Assembly: GCF_048403405.1 (NCBI RefSeq) | Contig: NZ_CP183129.1 | Strand: one strand, 5' to 3' | From: Escherichia coli | GTDB taxonomy: Bacteria; Pseudomonadota; Gammaproteobacteria; Enterobacterales; Enterobacteriaceae | Length of the DNA stretch: 64,000 bases | Shown: positions 49,038 through 50,222 of the stretch, in pieces | Layout of the letters: every line of letters begins with the position of its first letter | How positions within the stretch are numbered: the first letter of the stretch is position 1 | Notes under the pieces: generated by a model | Told to the model about the DNA's origin: nothing | Databases searched by the model: none | What the model saw: the letters and a program-made list of their open reading frames with translations, nothing else | Made by a program: the position numbers and the translations under genes

Positions 49038-49622
49038 GTGAATCTGATGACGACGATAACAGGCGTTGTGCTGGCGGGCGGTAAAGCCAGACGAATGGGC
49101 GGCGTAGATAAAGGATTGCTGGAATTAAATGGCAAACCGCTGTGGCAACATGTCGCTGACGCGCTTATGACGCAGCTCTCTCACGTCGTGGTTAATGCTA
49201 ATCGTCATCAGGAAATCTATCAGGCAAGCGGTCTGAAAGTGATTGAAGATTCACTGGCGGATTACCCAGGCCCTCTGGCAGGAATGCTTTCAGTAATGCA
49301 GCAGGAAGCTGGTGAGTGGTTTTTGTTTTGTCCGTGCGATACGCCTTACATTCCCCCAGATTTAGCCGCCCGGCTTAATCATCAGCGCAAAGATGCGCCT
49401 GTCGTGTGGGTCCATGACGGTGAACGCGATCACCCGACTATTGCTCTGGTAAACCGCGCTATTGAGCCTTTATTACTGGAATATCTGCAAGCAGGAGAAC
49501 GCCGGGTAATGGCATTTATGCGTCTGGCTGGCGGTCATGCGGTTGATTTCAGCGATCATAAAGATGCATTTGTTAACGTGAATACGCCAGAGGAGCTTGC
49601 CCGATGGCAGGAAAAACGATGA
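49038..49622 (+). CDS. mobA: Molybdenum cofactor guanylyltransferase
   Basis: 194-aa ORF with [11 protein letters not shown] motif. Confidence 0.9.
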
Positions 49623-50131
49623 TACCGTTACTCGCCTTTGCCGCGTGGAGTGGTACCGGAAAAACTACGCTTTTGAAAAAACTGATCCCGGCATTATGCG
49701 CCAGAGGGATCCGTCCAGGGCTGATTAAGCATACGCACCATGATATGGATGTTGATAAGCCAGGCAAAGATAGCTATGAGCTGCGCAAGGCTGGCGCGGC
49801 ACAAACCATCGTTGCCAGCCAGCAACGATGGGCCTTGATGACGGAAACACCAGACGAAGAAGAGCTGGATCTACAGTTTCTCGCAAGTCGAATGGATACC
49901 TCAAAGCTGGATTTGATTCTGGTCGAAGGGTTTAAGCATGAAGAGATCGCAAAGATTGTGCTGTTTCGCGATAGAGCCGGACATCGACCTGAAGAATTAG
50001 TGATAGACAGGCATGTTATTGCTGTAGCCAGTGATGTGCCGCTTAATCTTGATGTCGCATTACTGGATATTAATGATGTTGAGGGGCTGGCTGATTTTGT
50101 GGTGGAGTGGATGCAAAAGCAGAACGGATAA
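49604..50131 (+). CDS. mobB: Molybdopterin-guanine dinucleotide biosynthesis adapter protein MobB
   Basis: 175-aa ORF with P-loop GTGKTT; overlaps mobA 3' end. Confidence 0.85.
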
Positions 50132-50189: not shown

Positions 50190-50222
50190 CGCAAAAAGGC
50201 CATCCTGACGGATGGCCTTTCG
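50190..50222 (-). terminator. rrnA operon terminator (bidirectional hairpin GGCCATCC-GTCA-GGATGGCC)
   Basis: Perfect hairpin followed by T-run on the rRNA strand, immediately 3' of 5S rRNA. Confidence 0.75.

Follow-up and report, generated by a model that had tools for sequence, protein, structure and literature searches.

The overlapping genes mobA and mobB

The window, by which we mean the whole stretch of 64,000 nucleotides of Escherichia coli DNA that was analysed, contains mobA and mobB as two overlapping genes on the same strand. The pair is bordered by dsbA, srkA and yihD at one end and by the 5S/23S rRNA genes at the other end. The features on which the description of the genes and their overlap is based are the following:

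49038..49622, + strand: mobA coding sequence (molybdenum cofactor guanylyltransferase), 194 aa; from the list of open reading frames, TIGR02665 and RefSeq on identical sequence
49604..50131, + strand: mobB coding sequence, long form of the current reference annotation, 175 aa; from the list of open reading frames, PRK10751, 1NP6, RefSeq and tetracycline-inhibited ribosome profiling (TetRP)
49604..49622, + strand: 19-nt mobA/mobB overlap; from the sequence, the list of open reading frames and RefSeq, and given as -19 for K-12 by Huber et al. (2023, supplement)
49604..49606, + strand: ATG1, main mobB start, spanning MobA codons R189 (CGA, third base) and W190 (TGG, bases 1 and 2); from TetRP
49619..49622, + strand: ATGA, that is ATG2 over the mobA TGA stop; Met6 of MobB and start of the 170-aa short form, with a 4-nt overlap
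49643..49666, + strand: Walker A / P-loop codons of MobB, AWSGTGKT, residues 14-21; close to the N-terminus, in agreement with family membership, and used as the alignment anchor

The assignment of the two genes in the preliminary description is correct, the reading of the sequence and the list of open reading frames being in agreement. MobA reaches 231.8 bits against NCBIfam TIGR02665 (cutoff 151.85) and MobB 342 bits against PRK10751 (cutoff 204), both as whole-protein scores, which places the proteins in these families; MobB also belongs to TIGR00176 (167.6 bits, cutoff 76.2), and it is by PRK10751 and TIGR00176 that it is identified as the molybdopterin-guanine dinucleotide biosynthesis adaptor protein. 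Its matches in the PDB are 1NP6 (E = 7e-113) and 1P9N (E = 4e-110), with one substitution each: residue 124, encoded at 49973-49975, is Arg in the window (FRDRAGH) and Gly in both solved structures (FRDGAGH), a strain polymorphism. Several E. coli chromosomes match the 1.4-kb region at 100% identity, and at least 80% of its length is covered in 5423 of the 5426 complete E. coli genomes. The mobA gene starts at GTG 49038 and stops at TGA 49620-49622; an in-frame ATG at 49047, three codons after the GTG (MNLM...; 49038-49049), represents a second small start ambiguity in the operon, for which RefSeq takes the GTG.

Both genes contain positions 49604-49622, as the preliminary description had stated. 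In one frame this segment spells the end of MobA, from the last base of codon 189 through residue 194 to the stop codon, and in the other MobB residues 1-6 with the first base of codon 7. ATG1 exists because MobA has Arg (CGA) followed by Trp (TGG) at that point. The alternative mobB start proposed in the same description is also present: ATG2 (49619-49621) lies in the same frame, five codons downstream of ATG1. No further ATG, GTG or TTG occurs in the mobB frame from the preceding in-frame stop as far as the P-loop. We estimate that an upstream in-frame ATG would occur by chance within 15 open codons in about 1 case in 5, so that its presence is unremarkable taken alone. The TIGR02665 profile ends at MobA residue 188, which leaves residues 189-194 outside the conserved core, and TIGR00176 begins at MobB residue 10; the doubly coded segment is thus located in the variable tails of both proteins.

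Downstream of mobB, one further element was noted:

50195..50220, strand unassigned: GC-rich, terminator-like hairpin, AAAGGCCATCC...GGATGGCCTTT; a match to a consensus pattern only, the neighbouring rrf being taken from annotation

This hairpin lies in the gap separating the mobB stop (50131) from the convergent 5S rRNA gene, and it could serve as a terminator for both.

Start signals and evidence from K-12

Each of the two start codons is preceded by a Shine-Dalgarno-like element:

49590..49595, + strand: Shine-Dalgarno GAGGAG for ATG1, 8-nt spacer, formed by MobA codons E185-E186; -8.3 kcal/mol
49609..49612, + strand: weaker SD-like AGGA for ATG2, 6-nt spacer; duplex energy -5.5 kcal/mol

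These energies come from a simple SD/anti-SD duplex calculation, and they were compared with those of every ATG trinucleotide of the window, 2144 in total over the two strands. An energy at the level of ATG1 is matched by 29 of these 2144 (1.35%) and one at the level of ATG2 by 9.8%, which makes the context of ATG1 the more start-like of the two; GAGGAG at the correct distance precedes 0.14% of the window ATGs. With two in-frame start codons, each having a ribosome-binding context, mobB is a candidate alternative-start gene. It was considered whether the GKT of the extension MAGKT might be a meaningful copy of the GKT in the P-loop; this idea was rejected, as relatives read MAKET, MAREA, MADKI or MAGET at this place.

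The two solved structures differ at their N-terminus, the chain of 1NP6 beginning with AGKTM, which is the long form minus Met, and that of 1P9N with MIPLL, as in the short form. Since the 170-aa protein of 1P9N is normally folded, the structure does not depend on the five additional residues. The UniProt entry P32125 reportedly carries the remark 'initiator methionine removed', drawn from the protein sequencing of Eaves et al. 1997, and the first residues of 1NP6 are consistent with such a removal.

The same junction is found in K-12 MG1655 (b3857-b3856, U00096.3/NC_000913.3), with the same genes, the same neighbours (dsbA-srkA-yihD, rrfA-rrlA) and the same 19-nt overlap. The junction sequence is identical to that of the window, including both ATGs and both SD elements, and strain polymorphisms occur only outside it, for example at MobB residue 124, where K-12 has the Gly of the PDB entries. 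The MG1655 RefSeq record places mobB (b3856/NP_418293.2) at 4040906..4041433 and mobA at 4041415..4041999, overlapping by 19 nt; PGAP annotates the long form on DNA identical to that of the window (WP_000907626.1), and the table of intergenic distances of Huber et al. (2023) has the K-12 mobA-mobB pair at -19. In the 2006 K-12 record U00096.2 mobB began at the downstream ATG; the 2014 record U00096.3 shifted the start 15 nt upstream (PMC4909307, supplement). The 19-nt overlap is therefore an already known and ordinary junction in standard reference annotation. The preliminary description had also suggested a comparison with the reference length of MobB; current references take the upstream start, and profiling agrees with them.

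The main initiation signal of mobB in K-12 is shown to be at ATG1 by the TetRP experiment of Nakahigashi et al. (2016), in which a new mobB ATG initiation site was reported at -15 relative to the earlier start (PMC4909307, Table S2 row 56); this call equals the 2014 annotation and was reached independently (PMC4909307). The depths in the three samples were 30.1/7.17/20.26 for the upstream ATG and 0/12.04/0 for the downstream ATG; they are low for this gene, and the downstream ATG is ahead in one of the three samples (12.04 vs 7.17) (PMC4909307). The site is listed without manual inspection by the authors ('6. nt', for not tested), and no N-terminal peptide of MobB was reported in that study for either form; dual N-terminal peptides were reported there for five other genes (PMC4909307). 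In our search for N-terminal evidence, mobB was absent from the supplements of TRAINSPOTTER, Fijalkowski 2024 and Giess 2017.

The junction across Enterobacterales

The junctions of 80 species-representative Enterobacterales genomes were compared after anchoring on the P-loop. Five states have been seen in the Enterobacteriaceae, namely ATG2 only, both ATGs, ATG1 only, GTG at the ATG1 position with ATG2, and a MobA-MobB fusion. Most Enterobacteriaceae have ATG2 only, in the form ATGATxCC (M-I-P-L-L) over the mobA TGA, among them Klebsiella, Raoultella, Kosakonia, Kluyvera, Pseudocitrobacter and Trabulsiella, and the ATG2/ATGA is the sole usable start in 40 of the 51 classified loci. This state is consistent with the survey of Huber et al. 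(2023), in which MobA@MobB (COG0746@COG1763) is listed across prokaryotes at -4, -4, -4 over 168 pairs. ATG1 appears where the codon before the conserved MobA Trp ends in A, as a by-product of the NNA-TGG pair. ATG1 is usable alongside ATG2 in every Escherichia species as well as Intestinirhabdus and two Citrobacter; the ATG1 of Citrobacter sp. wls619 (locus L011) is made unusable by an in-frame TAA that follows it, and Cedecea possesses an ATG1-like start only. In Hafnia, Serratia, Proteus, Providencia and Photorhabdus the start lies 3-4 residues ahead of the xPLL motif, so that short extensions of the N-terminus are widespread in the family. The mean SD energy at the ATG1 site is -7.1 kcal/mol in the 11 loci with a usable ATG1 and -1.8 kcal/mol in the 40 loci without (Mann-Whitney p = 1.4e-5), a correlation that is supportive but not phylogenetically independent, since seven of the 11 loci are from Escherichia. 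The fusion was found in the Enterobacteriaceae bacterium LSJC7 (L061, 883-2019), where mobA and mobB share one open frame of 378 codons; it would be a natural MobA-MobB fusion like those of the known bifunctional families, judging from a single draft assembly in which an assembly error is possible.

Salmonella illustrates the turnover of the two starts within one genus. In the representative of S. enterica subsp. diarizonae, the mobA stop is TAA, which turns ATG2 into ATA, and ATG1, with a GGAGGA SD, is the sole start. The resulting MAKETIIPLL protein has exact matches on at least 1000 contigs and its N-terminus is the same in S. bongori; this is not a sequencing error, given the number of contigs and the second species. 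Other Salmonella read MAKETMIPLL, with both starts present, and in subsp. arizonae, for which annotation gives the short form, GTG stands in place of ATG1 and ATG2 is present; public annotations of Salmonella MobB are of 179 or 174 aa. In the many Salmonella that have ATA instead of ATG2, ATG1 alone must suffice, and the set of states as a whole indicates that either start is dispensable while the other remains.

Within Escherichia, the junction is strongly conserved. Every sampled member of the genus keeps the two ATGs, their SD-like elements and the ATGA, and 4235 of 5425 E. coli genomes carry an exact copy of the 76-nt junction; the one sampled record of the 95-99% identity class differs only downstream of the overlap. 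Variation in the E. coli population was rejected as a test of constraint in two frames, the junction being essentially invariant and thus informative on conservation only. Among seven Escherichia sequences, the 15 nt between the ATGs contain only two variable sites, 49615 and 49618, which are third positions of mobB codons: MAGKTM is kept, and the MobA tail reads ERQ or EKQ in place of EKR. This pattern fits translation of the MobB extension, two sites being weak evidence.

The junction also contains direct GGAAAAAC repeats, at 49610-49617 and 49658-49665, which correspond to codons G3-K4-T5 of the extension and to G19-K20-T21 of the P-loop. In E. coli OkiPb01679 (L084, 1530-1560), the 48 nt between the GGAAAAAC repeats are lost, removing ATG2, the mobA stop and the P-loop; mobB has an additional frameshift in this strain and is flagged by RefSeq as a frameshifted pseudogene.

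Initiation at the junction and its possible coupling to mobA

The reading that we favour, and hold to be probable, is that of an ordinary E. coli mobAB junction in which mobB is translated mainly from ATG 49604 as a 175-aa product under the direction of its SD, with ATG2 as a possible minor start. Initiation at ATG1 would be directed by the GAGGAG inside mobA codons 185-186; with its SD located there, the last five codons of mobA and its stop are read a second time, in another frame, as the first five and a half codons of mobB. The mature N-terminus would be AGKTM... after removal of the initiator Met, and ATG 49619 would be kept in E. coli as Met6, with a possible minor role as a second start.

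A related proposal is that both ATGs are used at meaningful levels, giving a 174-aa AGKTM... protein through the SD of ATG1 and a 170-aa MIPLL... protein through reinitiation at the ATGA. We consider it somewhat unlikely. The TetRP signal of the downstream ATG in a single sample out of three, the retention of either or both starts by Salmonella lineages, the precedent of dual N-terminal peptides for five other genes (Nakahigashi) and the -4 spacing, the best for reinitiation, all speak for it, as does the conservation of both starts with their elements across the sampled Escherichia and in the 4235 identical E. coli junctions; yet ATG2 has a TetRP depth of zero in the other two samples, and, being also an internal Met and overlapping the mobA stop, it needs no start function to be conserved. 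An extension of this proposal joins two MobB proteoforms, one SD-driven from -19 and the other ATGA-coupled from -4, with start-codon turnover in the Enterobacteriaceae and a ratio of the two forms set by the frequency of mobA translation, and we regard this combination as unlikely. It could also be argued that ATG 49619 is the sole real start, giving 170 aa and a 4-nt ATGA overlap, and that the 19-nt overlap is an artefact of annotating the longest open reading frame. The prevalence of ATG2 as the sole usable start among the classified loci, the blocked ATG1 of Citrobacter sp. wls619 and the typical -4 of the 168 pairs of Huber et al. (2023) agree with such a view, together with the 2006 K-12 annotation, the crystallised 170-aa protein (1P9N) and a core profile, TIGR00176, that begins only at residue 10. 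Against it, the main TetRP signal and the stronger SD both belong to ATG1, the Salmonella and Cedecea lineages without ATG2 must start upstream, and curated as well as automatic reference annotations are now at ATG1, which makes it improbable that ATG2 is the only start in E. coli.

The preliminary description had taken the overlap to imply translational coupling of mobB to mobA. Such a coupling is no more than plausible. A ribosome ending at UGA 49620-22 would cover both starts; it may reinitiate at ATG2, or it might move back by about 16 nt and reinitiate at ATG1, and reinitiation of this kind would couple the synthesis of MobB to that of MobA. Efficient termination-reinitiation in E. coli has been demonstrated for a stop/start range of -8 to +6, with the highest efficiency at the -4 of the ATGA; for native E. 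coli pairs, among which positive distances only were examined, reinitiation drops by 40-80% at +14 nt. The TetRP-supported start at -19 falls outside this efficient range and only ATG2, at -4, falls within it. Reinitiation in the backward direction has been described for phage fr at -34. Two other models were tried and set aside. When 49560-49670 was folded, no RNA structure occluding the ribosome-binding site of mobB emerged (z = 0.40 against shuffled sequences), which leaves a model of coupling by unfolding of this segment unsupported, and an internal mobB promoter was dismissed after a scan, by consensus only, found no promoter-like site on the + strand inside mobA. No published experiment on the coupling of the mobA-mobB pair was found in the literature.

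In comparison with known systems, the -4 ATGA arrangement of MobA-MobB in other prokaryotes has the same gene order and the mobA TGA over the ATG of M-I-P-L-L, and it is present here at 49619-22. The E. coli start according to TetRP and the reference annotation differs from it in lying 15 nt further upstream with an SD of its own, so that the functional overlap is of 19 nt rather than 4. The coat-lysis pairs of phages fr (-34) and MS2 (-50) likewise have a downstream start well before the stop of the upstream gene, and any reinitiation at the mobB start would accordingly require backward movement of the ribosome, as in fr and MS2. In these phages termination-dependent initiation has been shown experimentally, with an inhibitory RNA structure in MS2, whereas the mobAB junction has no predicted structure and a strong SD. 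The bifunctional MobA/MobB fusions (NF011057, NF011056, NF011059) contain the same adjacent domains, and both proteins of the window match their profiles in part; in contrast to the fusions, the two genes of the window occupy different frames and are separated by a stop, and their scores are far under the cutoffs of the fusion families.

The relevance of this junction goes little beyond annotation hygiene: it is the origin of the five-residue N-terminal disagreement among structures and K-12 annotations. For the cloning, tagging or deletion of mobB, or the editing of the mobA 3' end, it should be considered that the last five mobA codons hold the mobB start, that the Shine-Dalgarno sequence of mobB consists of mobA codons 185-186, and that two single-base changes silent in mobA can separate ATG1 from ATG2. 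The comparative series constitutes a small example of an incidental NNA-TGG pair in an upstream gene being recruited as the new start of the downstream gene.
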